64,000 bases of DNA, taken from NCBI RefSeq assembly GCF_037893015.1, contig NC_133661.1, positions 187,322,809 through 187,386,808 of the forward strand, in the 5' to 3' direction. This DNA is from Macrotis lagotis (taxonomy: Eukaryota). Position 1 is the stretch's first letter. The number at the start of each line of letters is the position of its first letter. The translations under genes were made by a program, and so were the position numbers. The notes below the pieces were generated by a model. The model saw only the letters and a list, made by a program, of their open reading frames with translations. It ran no database searches and was not told the DNA's origin. Shown in pieces: positions 791 through 26,530 of the stretch.

Positions 791-3700
791 GCTTTCCCTC
801 AGAACTAACATGAATCAAGTCTCTTAACAAATTTTGAATCCATAGAGCCCATAGAAGAACAGAGGGGAACATATCCCAGCAAAGTCTGGCATGGGGGAGT
901 GACAGCATGCCCAGGGCAGAAAGCAGAGACCAGTGCAGGGGTGGCAGGGTGAGGCCCGTGGCAAACTTGAGAACTATGGTGGAAGCATTTGCAATGTGTG
1001 TGGTGCGTGGACAGAACTCCAGCAAAGTGGCCATCTATCTGGTCACCTTGGCTGGTCTAGACCACCAGACTGTGAGCCCCCTGGTGCTTTCAGTGAAGGA
1101 GGCTTAATGAGAGAGTCAGATTTTCTCCAGAACAAACAGAAACAGCTCCAGGTTTTTGCACCTTGCCCCAAGGTCTGGGTGGGGTCAGGAGATCTCCCCA
1201 ACTGATTGCTGATTAAGTTGATTACCTGGAGAGAATCTTTGGATTTTCTAGTCTGAGGAACCAGTCCAAATTGGGCTAGGACAGTTCAGATCCTGCCCCA
1301 AACACTGCCAATACAGACTATCCAGAGAAAGTTTCTGGTATTCATTACTGGTGGGCCCACTAAGTAACACCCTGGAGTTCCTAACCCCAGGGAGAAAGAT
1401 GTCTAGAAATTGCAACAGAGAAGTATGCAAAGCAGCCCTTCCCAATATCCTAGGAAAAGAGCCCAAAATGAAGAAAGGCTAGTATTCAATTCTGGTCCAT
1501 TAAATGTTATCTTGGAGATAAGGATACCAATTCAGAAAAGGGTGGAGCTTAGGAGGAGAATATGAATTGGTCTCCAGCCCAGAAAGACTTCTTAGAAGAG
1601 ACCTGAAAGGAGCTTAAAAATCAAATGGAAAAATTTGAGAAAAGAAATGCAAGAGAAAATGAACATCTTACAACAAGAAAACAAATCCTTTGAAAATACA
1701 ATTGGGCAAGCCCAAAAAGAAAATAAATCTCAAAAATACAATTGGGCTAATGGAAAAAGATAACTCCTTCAGAAATATAATTGATCTATTGGAAAAGGAG
1801 ATGCAAAAGGTAAAAGAGGAAAATTCTTCTCAAAACAAAGATTGAAATCTGTAGAAACTAATGACTTCATGAGACAGCATAAAATCAAAAAAAAGGAAAA
1901 AAATAGAAGAAAATGTAAAATACCTCACTGGCAAAACAACTGACCTGTAAATTTAAGAATCATAGGACTACTTAAAAACCTTGAAGAAAAAAAAGCCTGG
2001 ACTTCATATTGTAGGATATAGTAAAGAACTACCCCATATTCCAGAACCAGAGGACAAAATAGTCATTGAAAAACTGTATCAATTCTCCTCCTGAAAGGAA
2101 TCCCAAAATGAAAACACTAAGGAATATTGTGGTCAAACTGTTATAACTATGAATGTGAATGGAATGAATTCTCCCATAAAATGAAAATGGATAGCAGAGT
2201 GGATTAAGACTCCCAAATCCCACAATACTTTGCTTACAAGAAACACATTTGAAGCAGAGAGATATATACAGAATAAAGGTAAAAGACTGGAGCAGAATAT
2301 ATTATGCTTCAGCTGAAGTGAAAAAATCAGGGGTAGCAATCCTTATCTCAGACAAAGCAGCTGCAAAAATAGATCTCATTAAAAGAGATAAGAAAGGAAA
2401 CTATTTCCTCCTAATAGGTACTTGGAAGTAATTTCAATACTAAATATGCACCAAGCCATATAGCACCCAGATTCTTAGAGAAGAAGCTAAACTAGTTACA
2501 GGAACTCATAGACAGCAAAACTTTATTGGTGGGAGACCTCAACCTCCTTCTCTCAGAATTAGATAAATCTAACCATAAAATAAACAAGACAGCAGTTAAG
2601 GAGCCAAATAAAATGTTAGAAAACTTAGATATGATAGCCCTCTGGAGAAAATTGAATGGGAATAGAAAGAAATATGTCCTTTTTTCCTGTAGTACCTGAC
2701 ATCTACACAAAAACTGACCCTGTATTAGGACATAAAATACTCACAATCAAATGTAGAAAGGCAGAAATATGTAGAAAGGCAGAAATATTTAATATATCTG
2801 TTTCAGACCATGATGCAATCACATGCAATAAAGGGCCATGGAAAGTTAGACCTAAAATTAATTGGAAACTAAATAACATAATTTTAAAGAATGAGTGGAC
2901 CAAACAACCACTCATAGAAAGAATTAATGATTTCATCCAAGACAACATACCAAAACTTATGGGATACAACCAAAGCAGTTTTTAGGGGATATATTATATC
3001 TTTAAATGCTTACAGGAACAAAATAGAGAAAGAGAAAAACAATGAACTGAGCATGCAAGTAAAAAAGTTAGAGAAAGAATGAAGTTAAAAAATCCCCAAT
3101 TAAATATACTGTAACAGAAAGGGTTACATATTGCACAGACTTTTAATTTGGTCAGCTCAAATCTGTCCCACAATGACAGGTTCTTTCTCTTAAGTCTTTA
3201 AATGAGAATTTAATGATTGGTATGCTTATAACCCAAGATTAATATACTTAGATATACAATTACATATATGCATTTATGAAGGAAAAACATCAGCATAGAT
3301 AAAGGAAAGAAAAAGTAAGAGATAATGAAAAAAAATAGTTACCCAACCAAGGAGACTCCATCAAACCTGGAAATCTGTCTGGGGAAGACCCTAGATGTCA
3401 TGACACAGGCTCTGGGATCGTGATTGGGAAAGTCCCTTCTGCAGACCATCCTCTCCAAAGAGATGGACTTCCAAAGCCCACTTTCCCAAGAAAGACCTTT
3501 ATAGTGCTCACACAAAAATTGCATGATCCAAGAGTTTACAAGACTGAAGTTGGTGATCTGGGGAGTTTCAGTCAAAACACCCTCAGATCCTGAGTGCAAT
3601 CACTTTCTCCAGGTGTCCTGAGGTAAACACCCAGGTATCGAAGTCCTCAGGTGTGGACCCCAAAACATGTTTACTAGGAAAGTTCCCTAGCACTCTCTGC

Positions 3701-6106
3701 CCCAGAACATGCCTTGATCAATCATACCTTGCTTTGATGTGCTTGGTCAAGAAGCTCCTTCTCCTTGGACCTTGATGACTGATAGGGAAGATCTCAACTT
3801 AATCCTTCCCCTTTCAATACCAAATTAGAAATTTTGAAAATTAAAAATGAAAATAAAATCAAAAGCAAGAAAACTATTGAACTTATAAATAAAACAAGGT
3901 GAACCCACCACCAATAAGGAGAAAATTAAAATAATAATTCAGAATTATTTTGCCCAACTGTATGCCAATAAACTTGATAATTTAAGTGAAATGGCAGAAT
4001 ATTTACAAAAATGCAAATTTCCCAGTTTAACAGAAGAGGAAATTAAATAACCTTGTCTCAGAAAAAAGAAATCCACCAGGCCATCAATGAACTCCCTAAG
4101 AAAAAATCTCCAGTGCTGGATGGATTCACCAGTGAATTCTATCAAACATTCAAGGAACAATTGGTTCCAGTTCTACATAAACTATTTGAAAAAATATTTG
4201 AAGTTGGAACTCTGCCTAATTCCATCTATGGCACCAATATAGTGCTGATACCTAATCCAGAAAGAGTTAAAAAAGAGAAAGAAAATTATAGACCAATTTC
4301 CCTAATGAATATGGATGAAAAATTTTAAATATTAGCAAAGCCATTACAGCAAGTTATTAGGATTTATAAGAGGTATGCAAGGTTGGTTCAATATTAGGAA
4401 AACTGTCAGCATAATTGACCATATCAATAGCAAACCTAACAAAAATCATATGATTATCTCAATATATGCTGAAAAAACTTTTGCGAAAAACAGCACCCAT
4501 TCCTACTAAAAACACTAGAGAGTATAGAAATAAAGGGATTATTCCTTAAAATGATAAGCAGTACGTATCTGGGATAAGCCAGAAGTATTTCCATAAGATC
4601 AGAGGTGAAACAAGGCTGCTGGTAATCATCACTATTTTTCAATATTGTTTTAGAAATGTTAGCTTTAGCAATAATAGAAGAAAATTGAAGGAATTACAAT
4701 TGGGAATGAAGAAAGAAACAAACTCTTTGCAGACATTATGATAGTATATCTAGAGAACCCTAGAAAATCATCTAAAAACTACTGGAAACAATTAGCAACT
4801 TTAGTAAAATCACAGGATATAAAATCAACCCATATAAATCCTAAGGATTTTTATATATTACTACCAAGATGTATGAGTAAGAGATAGAAAGAGAAATCCC
4901 ATTTAAAATAACTTCAGACAATATAAAATACTTGTAAGACTACCTGCCAAGGCAGACTCAGAAACTTCATAAAAACCATTATAAAACACTTTTCACACAA
5001 ATAAAATCAGATCTAAATATCTGTGCAAATATCAATTGCTCATGGGTAGGCCTAGCTAATACAATAAAAATGACATTTCTACCTAAATTAAACTATTTAT
5101 TTAGTGCCATACAATCAAGCTTACAAAAAATTACTTTAGTGAACTAGAAAAAATAGTAACTATATTCATATGGAGGAGCAAAAAGTCAAGAATATCAAAG
5201 GAATTAATGAAAAAAATGCAAAAGAAGGTGGCTTAGTCACACCAGATCTAAAATTATATTATAAAAGCATCAGTTATCAAAATTATCTGGTACTAGCTAA
5301 AAACAGAGTGGTAGATCAATGGAATAGATTAGATGCAAAAGAGATAACTGGAAATGACTATAGATTGACCCAAAGAGTTCAGCTTCTGAGATAAGAACTC
5401 ATTTTGTGATAAAAACTTCTGGGAAAATTGGAAGACAGCATGGCAGAAATTAGGATTAGACCAATGTCTCACAATCTACCAAGATAAGGTCAAATTGAGT
5501 GCAGGATTTAGACATAAAAGTCAATATTATAAGCAAATTAGGAAAACAATGAATAGTTACCTGTCAGATCTATAGAAGAGGGAACAGTTTATGACCAAAG
5601 AAGAGATAGAGAACATTATAAAAAATAAACTGGATAATTTTGATTACATTAAAAAGTTTTTGCACAAACAAAATTACTGTAGCCAAGATCAAAAGGAATG
5701 TAGTAAATTGGGAGACAATTTTTACCACTAGTATTTCTGACAAAGGATTCATTTCTAAAATGTATAGAGAACTGAATCAAATTTATAAAAAAAAATAACT
5801 CCCAGTTGACAAATTGTCAAATGATATGCAAAGGCAATTCTTGGACAAAAAAATCAAAGCTATCTGTAGTCATGAAAAATTGCTCTAAATCATTACTGAT
5901 GAAAGAAATGTAAATTAAAGCATCTCTGGGTTACTACTTCACACCTCTCAGGTTGACCAATATGCCCAGAAAGGAAAATGATCAATGTTGGAAGCTGTGT
6001 GGGAAATCGGGGACACCAATGTATTGTTGTTGGAGCTGTGAACTGATTCAACCTTTCTGGAGAACAATTTGGAATTATACCCAAAGGGCAATAAAAAATG
6101 TGCATA

Positions 6107-6250
6107 TGGGGGCTGCTAGGTGGCCACAGTGGATAGAGGCCCTGGAGTCAAGAGTACCTGAGTTCAAATGTGACCTCAGACACTTAATAATGACCTAGCT
6201 GTGTGGCCTTAGGCAAGCCACTTAACCCCATTTGTCTTGCAAAAAACCTA
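6107..6250 (+). mobile_element. Marsupial tRNA-derived SINE (SINE1/MIR-related family) nested in L1 ORF2. TSD aaaaaatgtgcata.
   Basis: ggggctgctaggtggccacagtggatagaggccctggagtcaagagtacctgagttcaaat...ccacttaaccccatttgtcttgcaaaaaa. Direct repeats at 6093-6106 and 6251-6264. Confidence 0.85.
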
Positions 6251-6763
6251 AAAAAATGTGCATACCAGTAGTGGTGAATACCCCCACTGGGTCTATACCC
6301 TGAGGAGATCATGAAAAAGGGTAAAAACCCCCTATGTACAAAAATATTCATAGCAACTCTGTTTGTAGTGGCAAAGAACTGGAAATTGAGGGGATTCCAT
6401 CAGTTGGGGAATGGCTGAACAAATTGTGGTATATGTATGTGAAGGAACACTATTGTTCCATTAGAAATCATTGGGGACAGTATTTCAGAAAAGCCTGGAA
6501 ATACTTAAAAGAATTGATCTGAGTGAGATGAACAGAACCAGAAGAACATCATAGACAGTAACAGCAACATGGGTTAATGATCCAACCGTGATGGACATGC
6601 TCATTCCATCAGGGACAAAAATCAGGGGCAATAATCAGGGACAATTTCAGGGGATTTGTGATGGAGAATATCATCTGTATCCTATGGAAATACTGTGGAG
6701 TTTAAACAAAGACCAAAACTTATTCTCTTCAATTCTTAAAAGTTGTCATATGTAATATATAAT

Positions 6764-6914
6764 TTTTTTTTGGTTTTTGCAAGGCAAATGGGGTTAAGTG
6801 GCTTGCCCAAGGCCACACAGCTAGGTCATTATTAAGTGTCTGAGACCGGATTTGAACCCAGGTAATTCTGACTCCAGGGCCGGTGTCTTATCCACTATGC
6901 CACCTAGCCACCCT
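6764..6914 (-). mobile_element. SINE (same family, antisense) inserted in the L1 3'UTR.
   Basis: Poly-T then ttgcaaggcaaatggggttaagtggcttgcccaaggccacacagctagg...ccacctagccaccc. TSD taatatataa(tt). Confidence 0.85.
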
Positions 6915-7169
6915 TTAATATATAATTTTGCTATCTCTAATGTTTTCTTTCTTCCTTGTGGATCTGATTCTTCTCTCATAACAAGCTCAATTTCAATCTA
7001 TGCTTATTATGGATGCAAATGTAAAACCTTTATCAGATTGCCTTCTGTTTGGGCAGAGGGGGAAGGAAAGGAGGGAGAGAGAAAAATTGTAAAACTCAAA
7101 ACTTAACCAAAAAAAAAATGATTGGTAGAAACTACCATTGAATGTAATTGGAAAACAAAAATTTTATAT

Positions 7170-8512
7170 TTTAAAAAATTCATCTAGAGCAATAAAAAAT
7201 AAAGAATATCAAGGGATTTAATGAAAAAAAAATGCAAAGGTAGGTGGCCTAGCTATCACAAATCTAAAACTATATTATAAAGCCACAATCATCAAAATTG
7301 TCTGGAACTGACTAAGAAATGGAAAAGTAGATTAAGGGGGCAGCCAGATCGCACAATGGATAGAGCAGCGGTCCTAGGGTCAGGAGGACCTGAGTTGAAA
7401 TCTGAACTCAGACACTTAATAATTGCCTTCTTATGTGATTTTGGACAGGTCACTGAACCCCATTGCCTTAAATAAATAAAAAATTAAAAAAAATGGATCA
7501 TTGGAATAGATTAGGAAAAAAAAGAAATGGAGGTAAATGACAATAATGATCTACTATTTGATAAACCCATAGACTCTATCATCTGGGATAAGAACCCACT
7601 ATTTTGACAAAAACTACTGGGAAAACTGGAAACTAGTATGGAAAAAAACTAGACCCACATCTCACACTCTAAACCAAATTAAGGTTAAATTAGGTACAGA
7701 ATTTAGGACATTAAGGATGATAACTTACACCAATTACCAGATTGAGATGATTGTCCTTCCTTCATGAAGACTACAACATCAGGGAGGTGATGCCATGGCA
7801 AATACATGAATTGAATTTGAATGAGGTGGGGGCTCCTCCAGAGTCATCTGGATTCAGTGATCAAATATGGATCAGGATGACTGAAGATGGCCCTGGATGA
7901 GAGGCAATCAGGGTTAAATGTCCTGTCCAAGGTCATATAATTAGTAAGAGTCAACAATTTTCACAGCTATTATTTCTGATAAAGGCCTCATTACTAAATA
8001 AGAATACAAGTCATTCTCTAATTGCTAAATGATCAAAGGATATGAACAGGCATTTTTTGGATGAAGAAATCAAAATATCTATAGTCATATAAATGCTTTA
8101 AATCATATTAATTAGAGAAATGCAAATTTAAATAACTCTAAAGTACTATCTCACACCTTATCTGGTTGACTAAAACGACAAAAAAGGAAAATGATCAATG
8201 TTGGAGAGGATGTGGGAAACCTGGGACCTTAATGCACTATTGGTGGAGTTGTGAACCAATCATACTATTTTGGAGAACAATTTGGAACTATGCCCAGAGC
8301 TAATAAAATTGTGCATACTCTTTGATGCAGCAATACCACTACCAGGTCTGTATTCCAAAGAGAATATAAAAAGGCGGGAAAGACCACATGTACAAAAATA
8401 TTTATAGAAGCTCTTTTTTTTAGTGGTAAAGAATTGGAGATTGAAAGGATGCCCATCAGTTGGAGAATCCTGAACATGCTATGGTATATGAATGTTATGA
8501 AGTACTATTGCT
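7170..8512 (+). mobile_element. LINE-1 3' fragment (ORF2 C-terminal region), 3'-truncated, with nested SINEs.
   Basis: KNAKVGGLAITNLKLYYKATIIK... and ...CWRGCGKPGTLMHYWWSCEPIILFWRTIWNYAQS..., WRIEGCPSVGES: typical L1 ORF2 C-terminal motifs. Confidence 0.7.
7336..7493 (+). mobile_element. SINE (same family, diverged) nested in the L1 fragment.
   Basis: ggggcagccagatcgcacaatggatagagcagcggtcctagggtcaggaggacctgagttgaaatctgaactcagacacttaataatt...aaaaaa. Confidence 0.7.
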
Positions 8513-9045
8513 CTGATTTTCCTGACTTTAGACCCTATTCTTTATCTACTTTATTGCCAACTGCCTCTAATTAAACCATTGATTACTGGTCATACGTTAA
8601 ATGAAGCTCAGTAAGCCAATGATATTGATGAAAAGAGAAGTAGTAGTTCCTTCTAAATTAAACTTCATGTTTTTATCACTGTAGGTTGAATGTGTAAAGG
8701 ATCTTAGAAGTTATATAGTTCAAATCCTACATCCTCAGCCTCTTCCTAAGATTTCATGACTATATGAAAATTCATGTTTGTAACAATTCTGTATGTAAAT
8801 TTGTCTGTAATTAATAAGTTTCTGAGTAAAGGGGAAATTCTATCTTGTATATCTTTTTTATAAAAAAAATCCTGATTTTGTCATCCTTCCACAAGTTTCT
8901 TCTCCATGAATTTATTCAATTTTTTTTCTATAGTAGTTTAAGGTGGGAATTTCAACAAATCATCTTGAGTCCACAAGCCAAGTGGGATCCTATTAGCAGT
9001 ATTAAGCAATGTTTTTGGCTACTTTTAGAAATTCAATATGTGAAT

Positions 9046-9048
9046 AGA

Positions 9049-9099
<51 letters not shown>
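9046..9099. repeat. (GA)n microsatellite.
   Basis: gagagagagagacagagagagagagagagagagagagaaagagagagaga. Confidence 0.95.
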
Positions 9100-9750
9100 T
9101 CAATCTAATCAGTCTAGTTTTTTAATTCTCCTTTGCAAATATGTTTCTGATATATAAATTTAGTCCTTTGCTAGAGTTCTAGTACAATTAATTAAATTAA
9201 AAGTTATTCCTCTTTTTCTCTTTGCTAATCTGAATGCAATTATTTAGCCTTTTTAAGACTAAGTAATTTAAATTATTTTGACTTTTTCTTATATATCCCA
9301 TTATCCTAGCCATTTCATAGCACAAAGTAAATCCTCTTTATATGCTAGGTTTATTATTATTCTCTGGTCCCCCAATTAGTCAGTTTTGTTCTGATCTCAC
9401 CTTTTTCCCTTCTTAAGCCTTCTTGATCATAGTGCTCTCTCTCTGAGATTATGATCAATTTGTCCTGTAAATATCATTTGCCTGCTATCTCTCCCATTAG
9501 ACTGTGAACTTCTTGAGAGCAAAGACTGCTCTTTATTGGGCTTCACATAGTGGCTTGGTAAATAGTAAACACTTAATTAATGCTTGTTGATTGACTGGGG
9601 TATGGAGGTGGGGTTTGTAGACTGAGAAACATATTTTGGATATGAAGTGTGACTCCAGAGTCAAAGATTTCTATTTTTTTTTAAATTTAAAAAAAAAATC
9701 AGTATTCCATTTTATTCTCTACTTAAATTCTGAATCTGATCAGTATGGTC

Positions 9751-9914
9751 TTTTTTGTTTGTTTTTTAGGATTTTTGCAAGGCAATGGGGTTAAGTGGCT
9801 TGCCCAAGGCCACACAGCTAGGTAATTATTATTATTATCTGAGGTCAGATTTGAACTCAGGTACTCCTGACTCCAGGGCCTGTGCTCTATCCACTGTCCC
9901 ACCTTAGCCTCCCC
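9751..9914 (-). mobile_element. SINE (antisense).
   Basis: T-rich tail then ttgcaaggcaatggggttaagtggcttgcccaaggccacacagctaggtaatt...ccactgtcccaccttagcctcccc. Confidence 0.85.
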
Positions 9915-10019
9915 AATTCTGCAGTCTTTTGATGTGAAGGTATTGTGTGCTCTTAATAATAGTGTCCCTTATGACCCAATTTGGGGTTTTCTTGGCAAAG
10001 CACTCCAGTAGATACTACT

Positions 10020-10123
10020 TTGGAGTAAGTGACTTGCCTGGGGTCACACAGTTGGCAAGTGTCTGAGGCCAGATTTGAACTCAGGAAGATGAATCTTCCT
10101 AGCTGTACCACTGAACTGCCCCT
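10020..10123 (-). mobile_element. MIR-like SINE fragment (antisense).
   Basis: gtaagtgacttgcctggggtcacacagttggcaagtgtctgaggccagatttgaactcagg... is a MIR-core-like sequence. Confidence 0.55.
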
Positions 10124-11439
10124 GTATTTTATTCATACACAGGATTCAGTGGAGAGAGAGTGGAGTCAGGAGACCAGGATTTGAATCTTGGATCAAATAC
10201 TTATTGGTCTGTGTGATCTCCAGCAAGCCACTCTTCTCTGTTTAGTGTGCTCTTCTGAAAAGCAAGGAGTTTTCAATAACTTTTTCCCAAAAAGAGATGA
10301 AAAGATATGGACGCACAATATTCAGAAGAATTGCAATAAAAAAGATAGAAAAGATTGTTCCAAATTTTTATAAGAGAAATGCAAATTAAAACTTGATGAG
10401 ATCAGAGATTTAAATGTTTCCAGTCCTAAGCATGATCAGTCAGTACATGATTAATTAATCAGTTAATCAGCAAGGATTTATGAAGTATTTACTGGGTCAT
10501 GGGCACCGCGCTAACTTACTGGAACTTTATTGTTGCTGTTCAGTTATGTCCTGCTCTTTTGACCCCAAGGACCATAACATGTGAGGCCCTCCTATCCTCC
10601 ACTATTTCTTAAAGTGTGTGTCCATGTGTGTCCAAGTTCATGTTCATTGTTTCCATGATACTATTTATGTCATCCTCTATTGTCCCATTTTGCTTTTGTC
10701 TTCAACCTTTCTCAACATCAGGATGTTTTCCAGTGAGTCCTGCCTTCTTATTTGTGGTGAAAGTATTTAAGCTTCAGCTTCAATATTTGACTTTCTAATA
10801 AACAATCTGAATTAATTTTAGTATTACAGGACAAAGCAAAAACAGTTCCTGTCCTCAAAAGAGTTTACATTCTAATGAAGGAAGCAATATATGTAAATGT
10901 AGATTATTATAAGAAAATAAAAAAAACACAAGAAAATGTTTGGAGACCAGAAGAGATAGAAATTGATTTTGATTGGGGATTAGGGGTGTCACTGGAGGTG
11001 ACATTTCAGCTGGTGAATTTGGGAAATGGTAAAAAAGCATAGTTTGACTGGAAAATAAAGTACTTGGAGTAGATCTTTCTGAAAGCTCTGAAATTAGCCC
11101 TTTATATGAGAACAATACCTTGTAAATTTATAGTTTGAAATTCTTTTAATAAAAATTAAATATCAGAATTTCCTGGTCATGATAATACTAGTTAGGCAGA
11201 TTGGTATGAGATTGTCTGGGTTAGTGAAAGAAGTTTTTGACTTTTAAGCAAAAGGGAACATGTCAAGGTTTTTGGCTAAAGAGGGAGATACTAGAATGTT
11301 ATTAGATCTCTAATAAGATTACTCAAGCATCATTATATATATAATAGGGGAACTACAGCTGGGGGATCCTGGAGCCTGGATGCCAAGTCATAAACTTATT
11401 TCTGACTGTAGATTTAGAGCTGAAAAATGACCTTAGTGG

Positions 11440-11565
11440 CCAATAAGCCACAAATCCTCATTTTACAAATGAGGAAACTGAGACACAGAGAAGTTAAATG
11501 ACTTGCCCAGAGTCACAGCTAGATAGATCTGAGATGGGATTCCAAGTCCAGTGCTCTATTTCCAT
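11440..11565 (-). mobile_element. MIR-like SINE fragment (antisense).
   Basis: ctcattttacaaatgaggaaactgagacacagagaagttaaatgacttgcccagagtcacagctag... is the reverse complement of the MIR core. Confidence 0.6.
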
Positions 11566-12934
11566 AGTGTAGGCATAAGTGATTGGAACCTCTATGTTGA
11601 GGAAGTGCAAAGGAGATTACTTTTGGAGTTATCATTTCATTGAGGATTTAATGTGAGTTCCCAAGTTAGGGTCTATTATCTCTACATAAAAGAAGTAGTG
11701 CCTTAAATGTATAAAAATGGATTGCTATATTCTGATGCAGCACAAGTTTGATGTTCAGTCTATTTAAATAATCTTCATGAGCTTGCTTTAGCTTTGCTAA
11801 AAATAACAACCCCTAAAACAACTCAGCCTGATTTTTTTTCTGGAGTATCACAGACTCTAAACAGGGTACTAATCCCTAATCTCTGTTTCTCTCTGTCTCT
11901 AGTCAGTCTGCTTGGCTGTCCTAGTGTATTTCAATAGATTTTTTTTTGTAATCCTGCCTTGTATTTTATGCATTAAAAAAACATCATTTTGAGAAGAGGC
12001 CCATAGGCTTCACTAGACTGTCAAAGGGTCTGTCTATACCTTGCTAAAGGTTAAGAACCTGTTCCAGAAGAAACAGGAAAGCACATCACTTTAACCCCTT
12101 TTAAGGGAAGGGAAGGGTGGGCCTTTGCCCTGGACTTACTAGCCAATCAGGTGCTTCCATTGTTTCTTTAAAGCTGTTTCCGGGCTCTCCCACCTTTTTC
12201 TTTATTCTGCCAATGGCTGGGTGAGTGGTGCTTGGGGAGTTGGGCAGGCGGGTAGCTTTTCAATCCCTTTTAAGCCTGGGTTTTGGGGAGCCATCTGCTC
12301 TTTCTTTCACTTCTTGGTGCCAGCTGGAAGCAAGATCAATTTTTGTGAAGTCCTGAGAAAGCCAGGGGGTGGTATGGGGCTTTAGCCTGGGAGGGCAAAG
12401 TTGAGCTGCTGTTTAGCCCAGGCTTCTGTCTGTGACCTGGAGGCTTCCTAAAACTGAGCTGCACTGAGCTCATTCTGAATAGCTGCAGGCCTGGGAGTGC
12501 TGGCTTTTTAGGCTAATGTGGCCTGTTGCCAGGGGGCATGCAGTTCTGAGGCTGAATCTGAAGTCTGACTTTGTCTGCCTTCCTTTCTTATAAGGTGGGT
12601 GAGGAGAGTAGGGACTGAATCTTCATTTAATGAACACTTTGAAAATTTTACTGGATCATTATTTTAACCTTGGAATTTTGCTGCTAATAATATTTGGGCT
12701 GGATTGGGAGAGACTGAGTAGAAACATTAGAGCCAGGGTTTCACTGGGCCTCTGAGATAGGAGCCCTTGGAAGGGTAGGGTGTCTTTTGAAAACCTTGAG
12801 TTGTGAACTACAATATGCATTGCTAGTTTCTTTACTCCAGTACTTTGATGGCATTAAATGGTGTTGGCCTTCAATTTAACTTATTTAGCCCCTTTTTCTT
12901 TTTTTAATCAGTGAGATTAGTAATAAATGTTGTA

Positions 12935-12936
<2 letters not shown>

Positions 12937-12969
<33 letters not shown>
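12937..12969. repeat. (TG)n microsatellite.
   Basis: About 16 uninterrupted TG units. Confidence 0.95.
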
Positions 12970-12971
<2 letters not shown>

Positions 12972-13873
12972 AATAGAAGAATGATTGAGACACGCAGTCT
13001 AGATTCTTAATGCTTCATTGATTCATTCACCAAATATCTGGTGATGGGTGAGAAGTATGATGGTTTGTGGGGTTCTTCTTAGCTGTTCTAGTTTTCAGAA
13101 GTGGGATAGGATTTTGTTTGCATGTGTAAGCTTTTTCCTTAAGACAAAATTTCTAGTGGTTATTTTTATAGCAGTTTATGCCATGAAAGGTGTAGATGGG
13201 GGGGCATTGTACTGTGTGCTAACAGAATAATTATTAAATATTTTAAAAATGCCATGGATTGCCTAATGACTTTTCTACCAAAGGTAAATTGTATTGACAA
13301 CCCTTTATGATCCTTTTGCTAACACCTATCCTCTTTTAAATATGGTTTAATTAATTTGTAGTGCTTATGGTAAGAGAAGGGGAGAAATGAGACTACTGGG
13401 CTTTGTGTCTTTAAAAAACCACGTGGTCTCTGAATTCTCAGGCAGGTCTGCAGGTGGTAGTGCTGCCTTCTCTATAAAAGTTAAACTAGTGGTGAGTAAA
13501 TTTTTATAGATCTTTAGCATTTATATGATATAACTGAAGCTTAGTATATGCTAAGAAGAGTAGAAATAGACCATTTTTAAGATGCCTTTTAAAATGGTCA
13601 TTTTCTTTTTAACAGTGTGATCTGGTTTCTCTTAGCAAACAGATGCTTGTTCAGGTGGATGGATACTGGAGTAGATCTTAAAGTAATTGTCTTCATTTTT
13701 AAGCTATCCATTTAAGTGAATTTAGGCTGAATATTGCTAATCTAGAATGGGAAATAGATGAAGAAAACATGTTAAGCCCTTCCGTAAAATGTGCTTTGAA
13801 TCAAAATCCCTCTGATGCCCTTGATTTTAATTTTGTCTTCAGTGGAAAAATAGCCTAGTTCCTGGGAAAGTTT

Positions 13874-13944
13874 CCTGCCATGATGAGCTGCATGTTCAGT
13901 CCGTGTTTCACATGATCACTGATTATACACATGTTCTGAGCAGA
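13874..13944 (+). ncRNA. Paralogous C/D-box snoRNA-like copy. It has the same C box, D box, terminal stem and shared 14-nt core cagtccgtgtttca, but its internal boxes are rearranged, so it may be a variant or a pseudogene.
   Basis: 5' stem cCTGC. ATGATGA at 13880-13886. Core guide gtccgtgtttca is followed by catgatca CTGA. D box CTGA at 13936-13939. 3' stem GCAGA. 71 nt long. About 80% identical to the 16781-16853 copy across the boxes. Confidence 0.45.
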
Positions 13945-14544
13945 GTCCACAGGAAGATTTTGACAGTGGGCTGGGGATGGGGAGAGAGCCATTGACCAAG
14001 TTATTAATTTTTTAAAAATTCCTAAAACCCCCTCACATATATTAATCTGACTTCCCCATCACCAGATATAAATTTAAGTATCAAAGCTAATGTGGGGTAT
14101 CTGGAAGAGAGGAGATAACAGCAAACCACACCCCTGATTTTCCCAGCTAGAATTGACTTAATATGGTTCAAGCTCTTGGCCATATTAAGCTGTAAGGATA
14201 ACATCAGTTCAAGTTCATGCAGACCAGTTCTGGATAGCAATCGAAAATTTTCTGCTTTCAACTTTTAGATTGAAGGTGGATTTGGTTTTTAATTAGTAAG
14301 GGGCCTTGTCAGAGGAGGAGGCATGGCCCTGGGCAAAGCTGGGAGGCAGAAGTCCAGCACCAGAAAAAGAAAACTTCCTTGTCTCAGGTCCACACCTAGC
14401 CCAGGTTAAAGGATGGAGCTCAGCATGGGAAGGGCTGTATCTCTGATACAGGTAAGTGCTAAGATATTTGTTTATATTCTCTAACTGATTAACTTGTCTA
14501 AATATCCATCTCTCTTTGGGGATAATAAATTCTTGATAGCCAAG

Positions 14545-15010
14545 CTCTTTTTTCTTCAGAAAGTTTTTATTAATTTTTGAGTTTTACAATTTTTCCCCCA
14601 TTCTTGTTTCCCTCCCCCCACCCCCCCACAGAGGGCATTCTGTTAGTCTTTATATTGTTTCCATGATATACATTGATCTTAGTTGAATGTGATGAGAGAG
14701 AAATCATATCCTTAAGGAAGAAAAATAAAGTATAAGAGATTACAAAATTACATAATAAGATAGCGGGTTTTTTTTACTAAATTGAAGGTAATAGTCTTTG
14801 TTCTTTGTTCAAACTCCACAATTCTTTCTCTGGCTACAGATGGTATTCTCCATTGCAGATAGCCCAAAATTGTCCCTGATTGTTGCACTGAAGGAATGAG
14901 CAAGTCCATTAAGGTTGATCATCACCCCCATGTTGCTGTTAGGGTGTATGATGTTTTTCTGATTACAATGTTTTTCTGGTTCTGTTCATCTTGCTTTCTG
15001 AGTACTTCTG
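14545..15010 (-). mobile_element. LINE-1 3'-end fragment (antisense).
   Basis: Reverse complement of the L1 3' terminus (gttttacaatttttccccc...cctcccccc...ctgttagtctttat...gatgagagagaaatcatatcc...) seen in other copies in this window. Confidence 0.7.
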
Positions 15011-15208
15011 TGACTTAGGAGATCTTTGTTGAATCTCTCTGCCCCTGTTTCCACATTTATAAAATGAGAATAATAATGCACCTACCTCCAAAGTCACTGC
15101 CTTTAGCAAAAGACAGTCCCTTGACCTCAAGGAGTTTACAATTTGATGGATGATGCTTTGCTGACTAAATATCTTCCGAAATCAGAAATGACATTCTTCA
15201 GTCTTGTG

Positions 15209-15266
<58 letters not shown>

Positions 15267-15312
15267 GTATCTATCTATCTATCTATGTATCTATCTATCT
15301 ATCTATCTATGT
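15209..15312. repeat. (ATCT)n tetranucleotide microsatellite with ATGT interruptions.
   Basis: About 26 units of atct with three atgt variants. Confidence 0.95.
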
Positions 15313-16780
15313 ATACTTGCCAGTTGAATATAAGTTCTTTGCTGGTGCTGCATTACTTAAAATTCTTACCTCTTGAGAGGCAGAGCTCAGGTGTTAAGCT
15401 GTAGTGGGGGCCTAAATCCAGTCAAGTGTCCTCACTAGGACCAGCCCCTGAGAATGGGGCTACCAGGATAATGTGGGGCGACTTAGCAAAGGTCAGAAAT
15501 AGAGCAGGTCAGAGATCTTTCTTCACCCCAATGGAATCAGAACCACTCTTTCTGTATTTACAGCTTGACAAATCCATCCATATGTGTATGTGTAAACATT
15601 TTTTTAGGATACCTATTTGAGGAATGTTTTTCATTTTTGATATTTAATAGAATTTAAGTTAGACTACTGAGTCTTCATTTTATCTACAATGGAATGTTAG
15701 TGACAGTGGAGTTAATAAAATACTTGTCTGAGAGATGATGTCAAAACTGAAAGATAATCCTGATATAAATTCCATTGATTTGATTTTTCCCTTCAATTTA
15801 GTACATCATCTAAAAGGAAAGAAAGTCAATGTTTCAGTCTGTTTCACATGATTTTTAGCTCCTGACACCAAGAAACCTTTGCCTATTGCCATCTTATAGC
15901 ATGTTTCAGAGCTTCATGGTTCTATCTCATTTTGTCTACATAAAAAGGGGAAGTTTTCAGTTTATATACAGAAAGAGGCTCTGTCCCTGTCATGATAGGT
16001 ATTTAATAAATAGCAATCCTTGGATTAGTAAAACTGAAAGTATTAAAATGTTTGGTCAGTGAATTGTAACTTACTTGAATATTGTATTTTACTGAATAAA
16101 ACTACTTTCACTGTTGGGTCTTTTGGGTATGTATATATATATATATATATATTTGTGTTTGAAAGTATGCTGTCTTTGCTCAGGCATGTTAAACTAATAA
16201 CTTTGCAATTTTTAGCTAACTTTTATATTTGGCTCCTAAGCAACATAGCCATTAGCATTTAGTGTGATTCATGGCCAATGAATCAGTATTGAACATTTGA
16301 TTCAAGATTAAAAAGCTCATCCAGAAAAGTGACTGAAATGTCTTTGAAACAATTTTTATGATTTAAATGAGGGTGTGGCACAGTGTAGTGCACAGTCTCA
16401 TTTTCATATATGTGGTCTCATTTCCTAGAAGCTTCAAAGAGCTACCACCAGTTTTAATGTGAATGACTGCAAGGCAGAAGCTGCACTTGTATCCGAGGTG
16501 AGTTCAAAGGAAGGTTCTACCTTCCCCTTGGATGATCAAGTCTTCTGACTCAGTGATGGAGGGGAGGGAGCACTCAGTACATCTGACCAAGTTGTGAGCA
16601 GCTTGGGGAAGTACCTTGTTTCACGATCTTCTGTCCTCTGGTTTGGGGCTTTACATTTCCATTGAATGAGTAGGTCATAAATCTGGATGAGTGAGAACCT
16701 TTTTTGTCACTTTTGAAGCTAAAGGGCTTATTTTGAGTTCATTAGAAACCTCTAGAAGTTAATGTCACACACATAAAGTG

Positions 16781-16853
16781 TCTGCCATGATGAAATGCAT
16801 TTCCAGTCCGTGTTTCAACTGATTACCATGATTGCACGCATACTCTGAGCAGA
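16781..16853 (+). ncRNA. C/D-box snoRNA candidate with canonical box order C-D'-C'-D. It carries an antisense element to conserved 28S rRNA and is probably SNORD126-like, intronic in a CCNB1IP1 host transcript.
   Basis: 5' stem TCTGC. C box cATGATGA at 16787-16793. Guide gtccgtgtttcaa immediately 5' of the D' box CTGA. A C'-like motif cATGATtg. D box CTGA at 16845-16848. 3' stem GCAGA, giving a perfect 5-bp terminal stem with the 5' stem. 73 nt long. Same strand as CCNB1IP1 and about 9.4 kb upstream of its ATG exon. Confidence 0.6.
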
Positions 16854-17519
16854 CTAGAGCCAGAGGTGAACATTTTAGAAAAGGAGGTTGGTTTTGTTCC
16901 TAGACTCTTGGGTTTGGTTAGTGGGCTATATGCCAATTCTAATTTTCTTGTTTATAATATCATAGTGTAGATTTGACTGGTACCAACTTCCCTTCTAAAA
17001 GGAGACATTATTCCTTTTAAAAATGAATGACATCTTGACAATTAGGTAGAAATAATGAAAGAATGAATGAAAAAACTTTAAACAGTTGCTTTATAAATCA
17101 GCATTTTGATAAATGCTAGGGAAACATGACTTGACAAACATCAATAATCATGAACCTTTTCATATTCATGTAGTTATAAGAAATACAATCTTAGGAAAAT
17201 ATGTAATAACTGTTTCATTGACACTTTTTGGTCATTACTATCACTTCCATGTAAAAAATGAATACTGCTTTCTTCTAACAAGTATAGTCAAACAAAGCAA
17301 ATCATATGTTTCTCATATCTGAAAATGAAATAAGTTTGCATCTTCTACTCTTGGCCAAGAGGTATAAGCTCATTATGTCAGTTTTCTATAATTACTGCCA
17401 TTTCATCAATATTCTTTCTAAAAGATCAAGACAGCCCCTTGAGGAAGATGGGCTTAAGTTGACCTCATTTGTATTCTTGGGGAGAAAATCAAGGTGGGAT
17501 TATGTGAAAATGGTCTCAC

Positions 17520-17770
17520 TCATTTTTTTTATTTGGATTTTTTTTACAATTTCCCCCCTAATCTTGCTTCCCTCCCCCCCCCCCAGGTCTCACTCATTTT
17601 TAAAAATTACATTTTTTCCATTTACATGTATCCCTTTGCAAGCTTTTGAATTCCATAGTTTTCTACCTTCTGCCCTTCTCTTTCTCCTCTAAATGACAGC
17701 AAGCAATTTGATATGTTGTACATGTGCAATCATGCATGTTTCCATATTAATCATGTTGCAAGAGAAGAAT
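17520..17770 (-). mobile_element. LINE-1 3'-end fragments (antisense). This includes a 60-bp mini-insert flanked by a 16-bp TSD, ggtctcactcattttt.
   Basis: The L1 3' terminus motif ttttttacaatttcccccctaatcttgcttccctcccccccc sits between direct repeats ggtctcactcattttt at 17513-17528 and 17587-17602. Confidence 0.5.
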
Positions 17771-19215
17771 TTAGAGCTAAGGGGCTTAGAGGAAAGTGGA
17801 AATCACAGTACTAACATTTGAATAATAATTTTTTGTAGCTTTTGGCCTTTTCTTTTGTAGCAAAAAAGCTGAAGATGTAAACAAATTCACTTTGACCACC
17901 TGCTTAGTAGTAGAAGTCATTATTTTAAGTCCGAGTGACAGCTGCTTGGTCTCTCCTTATGGTAAGTTTTTTTTAGAATTTAGAATTTAGAATTTAAAGA
18001 AAAATTATTAATTGAATGTTTTGACTTCGTAAATTTAAAATGGATAGAGCAAAGAGGTTGAGTGGCACTGGATCTTAGAAGCTCCCCTCACCTACATCAC
18101 AACCAAATCCTTGATGATATATACTGATGCAGCTTTGGATGGCTTGGGAGAATTTTTCTATCCAGAAAGTGATGGTTACCAAAATGTTGTTGGCAATTAT
18201 TAGTAAAGGACTTTATAGTAATTCAACTTGCTAACCTATACACAGGTATAATTTTAAATTTTTGAAATGGACTGTCACTGAAAAGTTTGGGTTTTACACG
18301 TATGTAGCAAATTTCAAGTGTGAATGGACAACCAATGACCAGTGGGGGTTATGACCTGCTGGAAATAGCAGCACTGGCAATCATCTTTAGTTCAGTTTTA
18401 TCTTTTGAAGTTTGGCCAAGAGTATAAATATGTGATGATGGAATATGGGGAATAACACAAGTAGTAAAGTTATATTTAACCTTTGAGGACATGATTCAGA
18501 GGGGTATTATTACTATTAAGACTGTGGCAGAAGTTGGAATGCTTCAAATGGGGTGTTAATACTGGACTGGAACTGAATCTACATACCATGTCACAAAAGT
18601 TCATACTGACTTGTGAAATTTACCTTCTAGCCATGAAGGCATTTTGTGAGGACATTTTAGTCATTAGAGAACTATTGAAAGATGATTTTTTTTGAAGGCC
18701 CTAAATGGTAACTGAAGTTTATTTTAAATATATAACCTGTGCTTATTATATTCAGAGGAAAGTTTTGTAATTTGAGTGGCATATTTGGAAAGAGTTAACA
18801 CTGTAAAACCAATGGAGTTTTAAGTCATCGTTTTTTCATTTTTTTAAGGAGATAGTTAAAAATCTGAAGCATATACTAAGAGTAATTTAAGAAATTAAAG
18901 GGAAAATTGACCAAAAATATTCATGCTGGATAGCTAATGTTTATTAAAAAAAGTATCTTTACATTTTTTTGCACTTATAATTTGTTTGGAAAGCAGAAAG
19001 TTGTTAGGAGAGGGTCACAATGAGTGTTTAAAGAAAATAGACTCAAGTTGAATTTAGAAGATGAAAATTTTGTTTGACCATTTCTTTAAATTTCTTTAAA
19101 TCCTTGATGGAATAATTTTTGGCAACAATCACCCTTTTCCACCCTCCTCTTTTTTAGTTAAATTTATTTTCCCTTCATTCCATCTTCTCTTCATCATTGG
19201 AAAACAACAAAAAAG

Positions 19216-19217
<2 letters not shown>

Positions 19218-19267
<50 letters not shown>

Positions 19268-19316
19268 ATATATATATGTATATATATACATATATATACA
19301 TATATATACATATATG
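19218..19316. repeat. Compound (TA)n(TG)n(TA)n microsatellite.
   Basis: tatatata...tgtgtgtgtgtgtgtg...tatatatatgtatatatatacatatatata... Confidence 0.95.
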
Positions 19317-20515
19317 GTTAAGCAAAACAAATTTCCATATTGGTCATGTTAAAAAGGTCTATTTTCTACTGTCAGTTACTGAGTCATCACTCCTGTTCAG
19401 AGAGGGTTAGCATGCATTTTATTGGTCCTCTGGAATCATGGTTGGTTTTTGTGTTCATCAGAGTTCAAATTTTTCATTTTCTAGATCTTTGCCCCTGAGA
19501 AAAAGTGCTACTAGTATAGGTCTACCAGAGGTTACTACATGTCCCTTAATAATTTCTGTAATACGTCAATATTTATTACATTAATATATTGTATCATAAT
19601 TTGCTCAGCCCTTCTCCAATTAATAGGTACCCTTAGTTTCCAGTTCTTTGTCCATATAAAAATTATTTTTAAAAAATTTGTTTTTAAAAGTTGAGTTGAA
19701 CATTGTAGGTAACTTTTCATTAATTTCTTTAGGGGGATAATGTATTTACTGAGACAATTTAGTAATTTTTTGGAGGGGTTCCAAATTATTTTTCAAATAA
19801 AGTGGACCAATTTACAACTATCAATATTTTATTAAATAGTGTGACATTCAGAAAGTGAGAATTAGAATCTCAGTTGCTTTGCTTTTCTCTAATAGTGATT
19901 TGGAGCATTTTTAAAAAAATATGGCTCATGAGAGCTTAGAGTGGTTTCCTTGAAAATTGTTGGTTTGTATTCTTTTACTATTTTAATAATTTTGACAATA
20001 TGTCCTTATTTTTAATACCCAGTGAATTCATAAGAAAGTAGTTTTGTTGAGATCCAGATGGCTGTTCCTCTCATTGCTTTGAGGTTCGTCAGTGGGGTTT
20101 TAGGCCATCACAGATCAAATTTGGTCTTTCTTCACTCAGGGCACCATTGGATGGATTGGCCATCTGTTAGTGCTTTCTGAATTTTGCGGGACCAGACATT
20201 TATAGGGCTAATCTGATCTAATCACATGGGTTACTCCTACTTATAATTGAGGCAGTTGATCTTTCAAATAAAAGGTAATTCATATCTCAATCCTAAGGGG
20301 GGGAGGGCAAGGAACTAGATTAAATTGAACTAGCAGTTAAAACTTAATTATGGTGTAGTTTTGCATTATATTCATGTAAACTGACTTATGTACTTTTATA
20401 GATTTAATTATTTGAAAGATTGTTTTTTTGATTTTTTAAAAATTTTTTTTCAGAATGAAGATAGCAGATTTTCACCAACAGCTGTAAATGGATGAATCAT
20501 CTTGCATAAGAACCT

Positions 20516-23960: not shown

Positions 23961-24229
23961 CGAAGGACAAACAACAGCAGCAGTTATAAACAACCTTAAT
24001 GAATTTAGTAGAGGAAAGAGACTAGTAAAACCAGAAATTCAAATGCGCCCTTCAGGGCTTATTTATTAAGCTCCTACCTGAGAGGCAAAAAATTAAACAG
24101 GTTGATATGGTAGATTTGTGCTAAAATCTAGGAAGTTGGATGAATATTGGTGCAAAAGGTGAATGACAGAAAATGAGTACATCAGAGGGGGAAACTCATT
24201 CTGAAGACTAGAGCTTTGTCTCTAACAAG

Positions 24230-24700
24230 TAGCTTTGTTTCGCTGAGCCAGTGACAGCAGGGGGCCATGGCGCACGCGCAGTACGAAACCCGTGTTGTGG
24301 GCGAGAGGGCGCATGCGTTGCTCGGCCGGTGGGGGAGGGAGGGGAAGAAGAGGAAGCGACGCTCGTTGCGGCCGAGGGCGTCGTGCCGGCCACGGTGCTT
24401 TCCCGTGTTTCCTCTTCTGGCGGGCTCAAGTAAAGATTTATTTTTTTTTCGTTTCGTTGGTTCGAAGTTGCGATGACGTGTTGAAAAACTGGCCCGCCCT
24501 CAGTCCAGTCCCGCCCCCTCCCCGGGCCGTTCTGGAAAGCGCGCCTCCTTCGGGCAGGGCGCCACGGCGCCGCCTCCCCTCCCCCACAGCAGGCCTCAGG
24601 CGGAGGCCTGGCCGGCATTTACCTCAGGCCCCCGGCTCTTGCCGGCCCGAGCCCGTGGGGCAGGATTGGAAGGAGAGTCGCTACTGAAAAAGCTGAGTAG
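24230..24700. promoter_or_regulatory. CpG island about 1.5 kb upstream of the CCNB1IP1 ATG exon. It is a candidate promoter or non-coding first exon.
   Basis: Dense CpG and high GC content (gcgcacgcgcagtacg...ggccgagggcgtcgtgccggccacgg...cgggcagggcgccacggcgccgcc) in otherwise AT-rich, CpG-depleted sequence. No conserved ORF. Confidence 0.5.
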
Positions 24701-25384
24701 GATTCTAGTTCTAGAGCTGGAAGGACCCAGTGAGGCCTTCCTACCCAACCCCCTCTTTTTACAGCCCAAGAAACAGGTCAGTCTAGGAGTTAGAATTGGA
24801 AGGGACTTTAAAGGCCCAGCCCCGTAGCCTCCTCTGACCCCCCCCGCTCCCGCCGAGGAGAGGAAAGTCCAAGGAGGTGATGACTTGCCCAGGGTCTTCA
24901 GGTGGTCTTCAACTTGAAAGGTGGATTTGATGGGACCCAGATCCTCCGGTTTTTAACAATTTTATGAATCGAATTGAAAGTTGAGCTGCCTACTCAGTCA
25001 GTAGGGCATGCCCCAATAGCTCCCGTGGGACCCTGCTAGATGGTGAGGGCCTTTAAATGGGAAGACATGCAACTTGAAACCAAGCATGATTTTTGGCAAA
25101 ATATATCAGTTTCTATTTTTAAAAAAGTCTCATTTCAGTCAGTTTGGTGTTTTAGTTAAGAGATGTGGATGAGAGTGGGGTGTGTAGGCCTATCTTGGAT
25201 TGTCATAAAAAAAACTAAGAGAATTAGGTTGAAAGACCCCTGAATAAAATGTATCCAGATTTGGGATGAAATACCAGCCGTGTGGTCAGCCAGCAACTCT
25301 ACTGTTAATTATGCTGCTAAATAAATGTGTTTAGTTTCTGTGGGCCTCCTGGATAAAAGTATTGGGTTTTCTTCATGACAGTGT

Positions 25385-26233: not shown

Positions 26234-26530
26234 ATGTCTATATGTGAAGACATGTTGCTCTGTAATTATCGGAAGTGTCGAATGAGGCTCTCTGGCTATG
26301 CCTGGGTAACTGCTTGCTCACACATCTTCTGTGACCAGCATGGCAGTGGTGAGTTTAGTCGGTCTCCAGCTGTCTGTCCTGCCTGCAATAGTACTCTTTC
26401 TGGGAAGCTAGACATTGTTCGAACAGAGCTCAGCCCCACAGAGGAATACAAAGCCATGGTGTTGGCTGGATTGAGACCAGAAATTGTCTTGGACATTAGC
26501 TCCCGAGCACTGGCCTTCTGGACCTATCAG
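26234..26530 (+). CDS. CCNB1IP1: CCNB1IP1 (HEI10, cyclin B1 interacting protein 1 E3 ubiquitin ligase) coding exon 1. It encodes the RING-like N-terminus MSICEDMLLCNYRKCRMRLSGYAWVTACSHIFCDQHGSGEFSRSPAVCPACN... and ends in phase 0.
   Basis: ATG at 26234. The 99 codons are near-identical to human CCNB1IP1 residues 1-99. Donor cag|gtaaat at 26530/26531. A likely acceptor ccttag| at 26180-26181 gives a 52-nt 5'UTR within the same exon. Confidence 0.92.

Follow-up and report, generated by a model that had tools for sequence, protein, structure and literature searches.

Two SNORD126-family snoRNA genes in the 5′ region of CCNB1IP1 of the bilby, Macrotis lagotis

The 5′ region of CCNB1IP1 in the greater bilby (Macrotis lagotis) appears to hold two genes for small nucleolar RNAs (snoRNAs) of the box C/D type, belonging to the SNORD126 family, both predicted to target the middle A of GAAAC in 28S ribosomal RNA (rRNA); we put the probability of this reading at about 0.85. 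The DNA analyzed, referred to as the window, is 64,000 nucleotides (nt) long (assembly GCF_037893015.1, contig NC_133661.1, positions 187,322,809–187,386,808 of the forward strand). The copy nearer to the coding exons is termed the proximal SNORD126 and the one farther upstream the distal SNORD126. SNORD126, the gene that hosts it and the rRNA site it guides have been described before; the additions here are a second, distal-type gene in a marsupial, a revised placement of its D′ box and a comparison that points to an old paralogue lineage whose copies have decayed repeatedly. In the literature searched, no paper links SNORD126 to platypus, opossum or marsupials, no second paralogue is described, and the names SNORD126A or SNORD126B do not occur.

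The whole window was scanned with the Rfam covariance models. The proximal SNORD126 (16779–16855, + strand) matches RF01168 with 91.2 bits (E = 5.6e-19) and the distal SNORD126 (13872–13946, + strand) with 74.6 bits (E = 2.2e-14). Both alignments cover model positions 1–77 of 77, and both scores exceed the gathering score of 55 bits. A family covariance model of our own, built from 12 intact copies, gives the distal copy 86.4 bits. Each copy has the C box, D box and terminal stem of a box C/D snoRNA, and each lies in the 5′ part of CCNB1IP1 on the same strand as the gene. Single-sequence folding z-scores are insignificant (−0.4 to −1.5), as expected for this class. An initial annotation of the window had pointed to two elements with shared motifs at 13874 and 16781 and had proposed a comparison with the SNORD126 model; the elements are present as described, on the + strand.

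The two bilby copies resemble each other over about 80 nt only (80% identity, 13867–13944 versus 16775–16853, E = 1e-13), and their flanks cannot be aligned. The exact 13-mer AGTCCGTGTTTCA occurs at two places in the window, which are the two copies, and a search of positions 1–27000 with the family model, filters off, returned no further significant copy. These observations bear on the concern, raised in the initial annotation, that the shared block could be a dispersed repeat, or else a retroposed snoRNA copy (snoRT) instead of a resident gene pair. Retrocopies of snoRNAs are common in mammals, especially in platypus. In this case such an origin is extremely unlikely: the snoRNA block itself has two significant matches in the 64-kb window, and neither copy is accompanied by the poly(A) tail or target-site duplications of a snoRT. 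The location is also syntenic across amniotes. CCNB1IP1 loci of other species were fetched via protein look-ups, each with 10 kb upstream of the start codon, and across the 408 kb obtained from 11 species all significant matches (E < 0.1) are upstream of SNORA79, within the 5′ region of CCNB1IP1. The sole other block shared by the flanks of the two copies, a C-rich segment at a similar offset (14564–14624 versus 17526–17584), was considered as flank homology and rejected, as it is an unrelated dispersed repeat, of which the window contains five or more additional copies. The copy at 17526–17584 lies at the start of a bilby-specific insertion of about 257 nt (17528–17784) that is absent from four other marsupials. 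The C-rich 5′ end recurs at six other places (14564–14624, 30299–30355, 33489–33529 on the − strand, 36625–36691, 47335–47373 and 55570–55636), so the insertion belongs to a dispersed repeat family, which accounts for the only similarity between the flanks outside the snoRNAs.

The boxes of the proximal copy read in the order C, guide, D′, C′, guide, D that had been claimed for it, with the guide abutting the D′ box CUGA (Table 1). A perfect terminal stem had been claimed for both copies. This holds for the proximal one, with 6 base pairs (bp); the distal stem, CCUGC/GCAGA, forms four Watson–Crick pairs followed by a C·A mismatch that Rfam marks as non-canonical. The distal D′ box had been misplaced in the initial annotation, which left an 8-nt segment, catgatca, between guide and D′ and led to the suggestion of a shifted pairing. 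The CUGA chosen there (13919–13922) belongs to the C′ region (CUGAUUA), which is present in 12 of 12 family members in the Rfam and 12-sequence alignments. The homologous D′ box is AUGA at 13912–13915. It differs from CUGA at the first base only and keeps the UGA that forms the sheared pairs.

With the D′ boxes placed in this way, the guide and its target can be read in both copies. All 12 intact copies carry the 12-nt guide GTCCGTGTTTCA unchanged, and it is complementary to GTCTTGAAACACGGACC in the large-subunit (LSU) rRNA. The sense strand was taken from the LR3R primer, GUCUUGAAACACGGACC, found in 16 papers, and the guide complements this primer sequence, as had been recognized for the stretch used by the LR3 primer. 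Against 28S UUGAAACACGGAC the proximal guide forms 13 bp. The distal guide forms 12 bp plus a C·U mismatch adjoining D′, because its D′-adjacent C faces U. The fifth guide position from D′ is U16814 in the proximal copy and U13907 in the distal copy, and in both its partner is the middle A of GAAAC within 28S ...UGAAACACGGAC... This is the nucleotide named in the initial annotation, and it agrees with the published SNORD126 site, Am1310/Am1323 in human 28S. The distal target call depends on AUGA as the D′ box, an assignment supported by the family alignment. Since AUGA stands at the homologous D′ position, the two bilby copies are predicted to hit the same 28S nucleotide, the distal one through a one-base D′ variant and not through a shifted pairing.

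SNORD126 was listed as an orphan in 2006, and some cancer papers still call it one. Methylation of the 28S A1310 site by SNORD126 has been reported. A review likewise assigns A1310 to SNORD126, with Am1310 reported in human and rat and absent in mouse, and describes the rat modification as tissue-specific because of differential SNORD126 expression. In a table with newer numbering, Am1323 is assigned to SNORD126 and Am1326 to SNORD18, which places the SNORD126 site 3 nt upstream of the SNORD18 site. Against the SNORD18 model (RF00093) the bilby copies stay below the gathering score of 41, with 36.7 and 35.0 bits. When the proximal copy is aligned to the SNORD18 covariance model, there is an insertion of exactly 3 nt between the shared guide and D′; the target therefore shifts from Am1326 to Am1323.

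The following mechanism is predicted for the bilby from what is known of the SNORD126 family. A host transcript beginning upstream of 13.8 kb would carry each snoRNA in an intron, from which it would be excised; after trimming as far as the terminal stem, it would assemble with SNU13, NOP56, NOP58 and fibrillarin. The guide preceding D′ would pair with 5′-UUGAAACACGGAC-3′ in 28S rRNA, and fibrillarin would methylate the 2′-OH of the nucleotide paired to the fifth guide position, Am1310 (old numbering) or Am1323 (new numbering) in human.

Could the main role be non-canonical, acting on mRNA, splicing or protein binding instead of rRNA methylation? Human SNORD126 is reported to bind hnRNPK and to activate FGFR2/PI3K-AKT, and its knockdown alters mRNA levels and splicing. 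In addition, a pre-D-box segment, ACACAUGC, is conserved across amniotes without a known target. However, the rRNA guide and boxes are the only segment invariant in 12 of 12 copies, over roughly 300 million years (My), the snoGloBe-implicated region around D′ differs between the two bilby copies, and methylation of the site has been attributed to SNORD126 as described above. We therefore regard a primarily non-canonical role as very unlikely.

A separate observation concerns the pre-D-box segment. The post-C-box GCAUGU (13890–13895) is complementary to the pre-D-box ACAUGC (13929–13934), corresponding to columns ~20–25 and ~62–67 of the family alignment. This complementarity is shared by the copies of turtle, platypus and eutherians, whose centroid folds contain the pairing. 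The marsupial proximal copies differ on both sides, but another register, AUGCAU with AUGCAU, can pair there. Such a pairing might explain why the ‘second guide’ region without a known target is conserved.

The host gene was located with tblastn, with a human HEI10/CCNB1IP1 protein sequence that served as the search probe only. Three coding exons with GT-AG junctions lie on the + strand of the window, and the 277-residue product assembled from them is identical to M. lagotis CCNB1IP1 (E3 ubiquitin-protein ligase, XP_074091091), in agreement with the host gene and the marsupial origin proposed in the initial annotation. The records XP_074091091–94 have one protein in common, which implies alternative 5′ untranslated regions. 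The two SNORD126 copies and a SNORA79-family gene are 6–12 kb upstream of the start-codon exon and on the same strand. Because the C/D snoRNAs of vertebrates are nearly always found in introns, some transcript has to cross 13.9–20.2 kb. Candidate splice signals are consistent with this. About 117 nt downstream of the proximal copy there is a candidate acceptor with a branch point and a pyrimidine-rich run, and a block TTCTAAC...TGTAG/ATTTGAC (slashes mark predicted exon boundaries) is conserved in five marsupials 95–117 nt downstream of the proximal copy. Another candidate acceptor, read from the bilby sequence only, follows the distal copy at about 121 nt. In the platypus locus (L008), a candidate exon, ccctag/AGAC...GAGG/gtaagg, lies between the two SNORD126 copies at ~5230–5323.

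The order SNORD126, SNORA79, CCNB1IP1 start codon is found wherever the fetched DNA reaches: in four other marsupials, platypus, two eutherians, turtle and Anolis. A position in the 5′ part of CCNB1IP1, on the gene's strand, recurs in ten other amniote species. Sarcophilus, Antechinus, Dromiciops and Trichosurus have orthologues of the proximal SNORD126 that are 93–96% identical to it, and the marsupial SNORA79 orthologues are 93–95% identical, compared with 67–78% for the surrounding introns. The Gracilinanus and koala loci end before the proximal-copy position. Rfam finds one SNORD126 followed by SNORA79 in ground squirrel, colobus monkey, turtle and Anolis. Platypus has two in tandem, at 5063–5137 (70.6 bits) and 5471–5547 (101.5 bits) of L008, with an RNase P RNA gene on one side and SNORA79 on the other. 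Between bilby and platypus, the distal copies are 85% identical, with unalignable flanks. A search with the family model, filters off, gave no extra copy in the ground squirrel, Anolis or platypus loci. The same model detects a degenerate second copy in turtle (L011, 1761–1838, 59.6 bits) about 1.1 kb upstream of the intact one, with a C box ACGAUGA, a D box CUCA and three guide mismatches; its stem is intact.

The presence of two copy kinds in both bilby and platypus raises the question of when they separated. Turtle and Anolis, used as outgroups to polarize the characters, show AAC-UGCAUG following the C box and CAC preceding D′ to be ancestral; the derived AAA and CAG/CAA occur in every mammalian copy that is proximal or single (platypus, five marsupials, two eutherians). 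The distal copies of bilby and platypus keep the ancestral states, and they share a 3-nt deletion in the D′–C′ spacer and a C>G change in the 3′ stem. Four topologies were compared by Fitch parsimony on 12 sequences. Placing the distal clade as sister to the proximal clade requires 65 steps, and distal copies as successive outgroups to the proximal clade 66; a platypus duplication plus a therian-stem duplication requires 69, and independent duplications in platypus and in marsupials 70. Because the ancient-split topologies need fewer steps and the distal copies share derived characters, it is likely that the distal and proximal lineages separated before the monotreme–therian split, that is, before crown mammals. 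The absence of residual similarity between the flanks of the two bilby copies also indicates that the duplication is old. The bilby proximal SNORD126 is the orthologue of the single eutherian SNORD126. The initial annotation had suggested that the pair might be a duplicated marsupial SNORD126. The family assignment stands, whereas the duplication is probably not a marsupial event, because platypus has the same two kinds of copy.

Along the proximal lineage, AAC would have changed to AAA after the C box and C to G/A next to D′. The distal lineage would have kept the ancestral amniote states, lost 3 nt of the D′–C′ spacer and acquired the 3′ stem GCAGAG; it would have stayed intact in bilby and nearly so in platypus, and decayed or vanished in the two eutherians examined. 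Alternatively, bilby and platypus could each have duplicated the gene independently, with the likeness of their distal copies due to retained ancestral states and convergence. Extra tandem copies arise repeatedly here, as the turtle copy illustrates, and most ‘distal’ features are ancestral states. The phylogenetic signal amounts to about 4–5 characters in a 77-nt gene. One of these is the labile D′-adjacent base, G or A among marsupials; a flanking column is in conflict, and the parsimony gap is just 3–5 steps. Independent origins would, however, require four reversals to the sauropsid state, as both distal copies lack the two derived substitutions, and would leave the shared spacer deletion, the shared 3′ stem change and the dissimilar flanks of the bilby copies to be explained. 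We consider this alternative doubtful, and favor separation of the two lineages before crown mammals.

A dead SNORD126-like relic is also found in the bilby locus, about 950 nt upstream of the proximal SNORD126. Decay has put it beyond the reach of scoring with the family model, yet it is clearly alignable. We considered whether it is a box-deleted sister of the distal copy with shared flanks; a full-length alignment instead identifies it as a copy of full extent that substitutions have inactivated. In Sarcophilus, Antechinus, Trichosurus and Dromiciops the orthologous relics score 17.8–28.6 bits with the family model and lie ~0.9–1.4 kb upstream of the proximal copy (L001 1861–1943, L006 1133–1212, L005 75–142 and L003 101–176), so that, bilby included, five australidelphian marsupials have the relic at the orthologous place. 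This relic reads GGGAAGA at the C box, has no D box left and shows TpG in place of the guide CpG. Its character states are mixed, with CAC and an ancestral-length D′–C′ spacer, so at least three copies once existed. A separate dead relic in Colobus (L010, 3250–3321) scores 22.7 bits with the family model; it lies about 1 kb upstream of the SNORD126 gene there and keeps the ancestral-type GAUGAAC and AC/CU states. Tandem gain and decay of SNORD126 copies thus seems to recur at the CCNB1IP1 locus.

Several observations weigh against our reading of two functional genes of ancient origin, in addition to the small phylogenetic signal. The copy history must have been more complex than one duplication, given the at least three copies implied by the relic. 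All fetched marsupial loci end at or before the equivalent of bilby ~15.45 kb, short of the distal position, and the platypus distal copy has an imperfect C box, GGGAUGA. The CpG island at 24201–24750 is 1.5–2 kb upstream of the start-codon exon and downstream of all three snoRNAs. In positions 1–13871 we found no promoter, CpG island or AG/GTRAG donor, nor any block conserved with platypus, eutherians or reptiles. An equivalent island is present 1.3–3.7 kb upstream of the ATG in six of six other marsupial species (~6.3–8.8 kb in L001 and L003–L007), and CpG-rich patches occur at a similar relative position in platypus and turtle. The bilby island may be an internal or alternative CCNB1IP1 promoter whose transcripts skip the snoRNA-bearing introns. 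It is reasonable to infer, as the initial annotation did, that the host transcript starts upstream of 13.8 kb, possibly beyond the window.

A further question is whether only the proximal copy is functional, the distal one being a pseudogene or producing an RNA that accumulates without directing methylation. Its D′ box is non-canonical, its stem has only four clean pairs before the outer C·A mismatch, its Rfam score is the lower of the two, no promoter is evident upstream, and upstream copies have died repeatedly at this locus (the marsupial and Colobus relics and the turtle copy). On the other side, D′ boxes are commonly degenerate in vertebrate C/D snoRNAs, and the UGA that forms the sheared pairs is kept. 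The distal copy has lost none of its C, C′ and D boxes and none of the 12 guide bases, the hypermutable CpG among them, whereas the relic about 2 kb away, which serves as a control for decay, retains none of these intact. This integrity, combined with 85% identity to the platypus distal copy despite unalignable flanks, argues for long-term purifying selection on the distal copy, although a recent inactivation would fit as well. A non-functional distal copy is therefore unlikely, and two SNORD126 genes with a common predicted target remain the best explanation. More tentatively, the distal copies may represent an unnamed SNORD126 paralogue lineage, older than the monotreme–therian split, that stayed functional in platypus and one or more marsupials for over about 180 My and decayed in eutherians; we give this proposal slightly less than even odds.

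If this proposal is true, a pair of copies, each in an intron of its own within alternative 5′ host transcripts, could place this methylation in non-eutherian mammals under a different, perhaps more constitutive, control, since in rodents the methylation of Am1310/Am1323 is variable or tissue-specific. Mouse lacks SNORD126, in rat it is tissue-restricted, and the site is fractionally used, so the number of copies at the locus could offer a small natural experiment in what sets rRNA methylation stoichiometry. The main value of the findings lies in annotation: to the CCNB1IP1 locus of the bilby they assign two SNORD126 genes, one dead copy and one gene of the SNORA79 family, and they correct where the distal D′ box lies. 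The amniote-wide SNORD126–SNORA79–CCNB1IP1 arrangement is of modest evolutionary interest, and the understanding of how C/D snoRNAs work is unchanged.

Table 1. Features of the CCNB1IP1 locus in the bilby window, numbered from its first nucleotide
Feature	Positions	Strand	Evidence
Distal SNORD126, terminal stem (4 bp)	13875–13878 with 13940–13943	+	
Distal SNORD126, C box AUGAUGA	13880–13886	+	read from sequence
Distal SNORD126, guide GUCCGUGUUUCA, then C13911	13899–13910	+	read from sequence
Distal SNORD126, D′ variant AUGA	13912–13915	+	Rfam and family alignments
Distal SNORD126, C′ box UGAUUA	13920–13925	+	
Distal SNORD126, D box CUGA	13936–13939	+	
Candidate acceptor (ttaatctgacttccccatcaccag/) after distal SNORD126	14043–14065	+	bilby sequence only
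Dead SNORD126-like relic	15806–15876	+	alignment
Proximal SNORD126, terminal stem (6 bp)	16780–16785 with 16849–16854	+	
Proximal SNORD126, C box AUGAUGA	16787–16793	+	read from sequence
Proximal SNORD126, guide GUCCGUGUUUCAA, abuts D′	16806–16818	+	read from sequence
Proximal SNORD126, D′ box CUGA	16819–16822	+	
Proximal SNORD126, C′ box UGAUUG	16829–16834	+	
Proximal SNORD126, D box CUGA	16845–16848	+	
Candidate 3′ splice site: branch point TTCTAAT, pyrimidine-rich run, AG at 16969–16970	16937–16970	+	sequence only
SNORA79-family H/ACA snoRNA	20056–20201	+	Rfam RF00600, 120.2 bits (gathering score 55)
CpG island, the only one in 1–27000	24201–24750		
CCNB1IP1 coding exon 1 (ATG at 26234)	26234–26530	+	tblastn, GT-AG junctions
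CCNB1IP1 coding exon 2	39142–39475	+	tblastn, GT-AG junctions
CCNB1IP1 coding exon 3, stop codon included	44229–44431	+	tblastn, GT-AG junctions

The neighborhood of the two genes holds further features. Orthologues of the SNORA79-family gene are present in every fetched locus (by blastn in L001 and L003–L007, by Rfam in L001, L006 and L008–L012). In the snoSeeker paper, human SNORA79 is placed in GTF2A1, with U6 pseudouridylation targets; the bilby gene is thus presumably a paralogue of the GTF2A1-hosted SNORA79. A second CpG island, at 45751–47000 and downstream, lies about 1.3 kb past the CCNB1IP1 stop codon. The gene that follows on this strand in the loci of other marsupials, platypus and eutherians encodes TPR and TTC5_OB domains (TTC5), and TTC5 is therefore expected downstream in the bilby window. 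On the other side of the platypus pair, PARP2 (minus strand) and the RNase P RNA gene (3463–3810, 192.9 bits) are within 1.3 kb of the distal SNORD126. Positions 1–13871 of the bilby window contain no RNase P RNA and no PARP2 exons; this DNA is CpG-poor with LINE-like open reading frames (e.g. 4053–4328), so the intergenic or first-intron region is greatly expanded. Weak tRNA-like matches on the + strand at 48317–48388 and 27034–27106 (Rfam, 35.1 and 29.3 bits), of which ARAGORN calls only the former, as tRNA-Ser(GGA), are probably fragments of tRNA-derived short interspersed elements and not genes. Microsatellites are found at 15209–15310, (ATCT)n, and at 19206–19323, (TA)n/(TG)n. Matches of the mir-297, mir-466 and mir-1277 types (19240–19316) were rejected, as they score well below their gathering scores and the sequence is the (TA)n/(TG)n microsatellite.

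Comparison with known systems places the bilby pair closest to human SNORD126, with which it shares the host gene CCNB1IP1/HEI10, the order relative to SNORA79, the 12-nt guide and the predicted target. It differs in having two intact copies and a relic in place of one gene. The bilby proximal copy has diverged in the pre-D-box segment (GCACGCAUAC versus ACACAUGC), and the distal copy has the AUGA D′ box, a D′–C′ spacer shorter by 3 nt and the sauropsid-like AAC and CAC. SNORD18/U18 has an overlapping guide (GUCCGUGUUUC), uses the same 28S stretch and has a similar box layout, and SNORD126 copies give sub-threshold RF00093 matches of 35–39.5 bits; outside the boxes and guide the similarity is negligible. 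The pair also resembles tandem snoRNA paralogues such as SNORD18A/B/C and those of GAS5. The SNORD126 copies are on the same strand, ~0.4–3 kb apart, each ~90–120 nt upstream of an acceptor-like site, with a candidate exon between the copies in platypus. Unlike those arrays, the SNORD126 locus has exons that are predicted, from sequence only, and one of its array members is dead.

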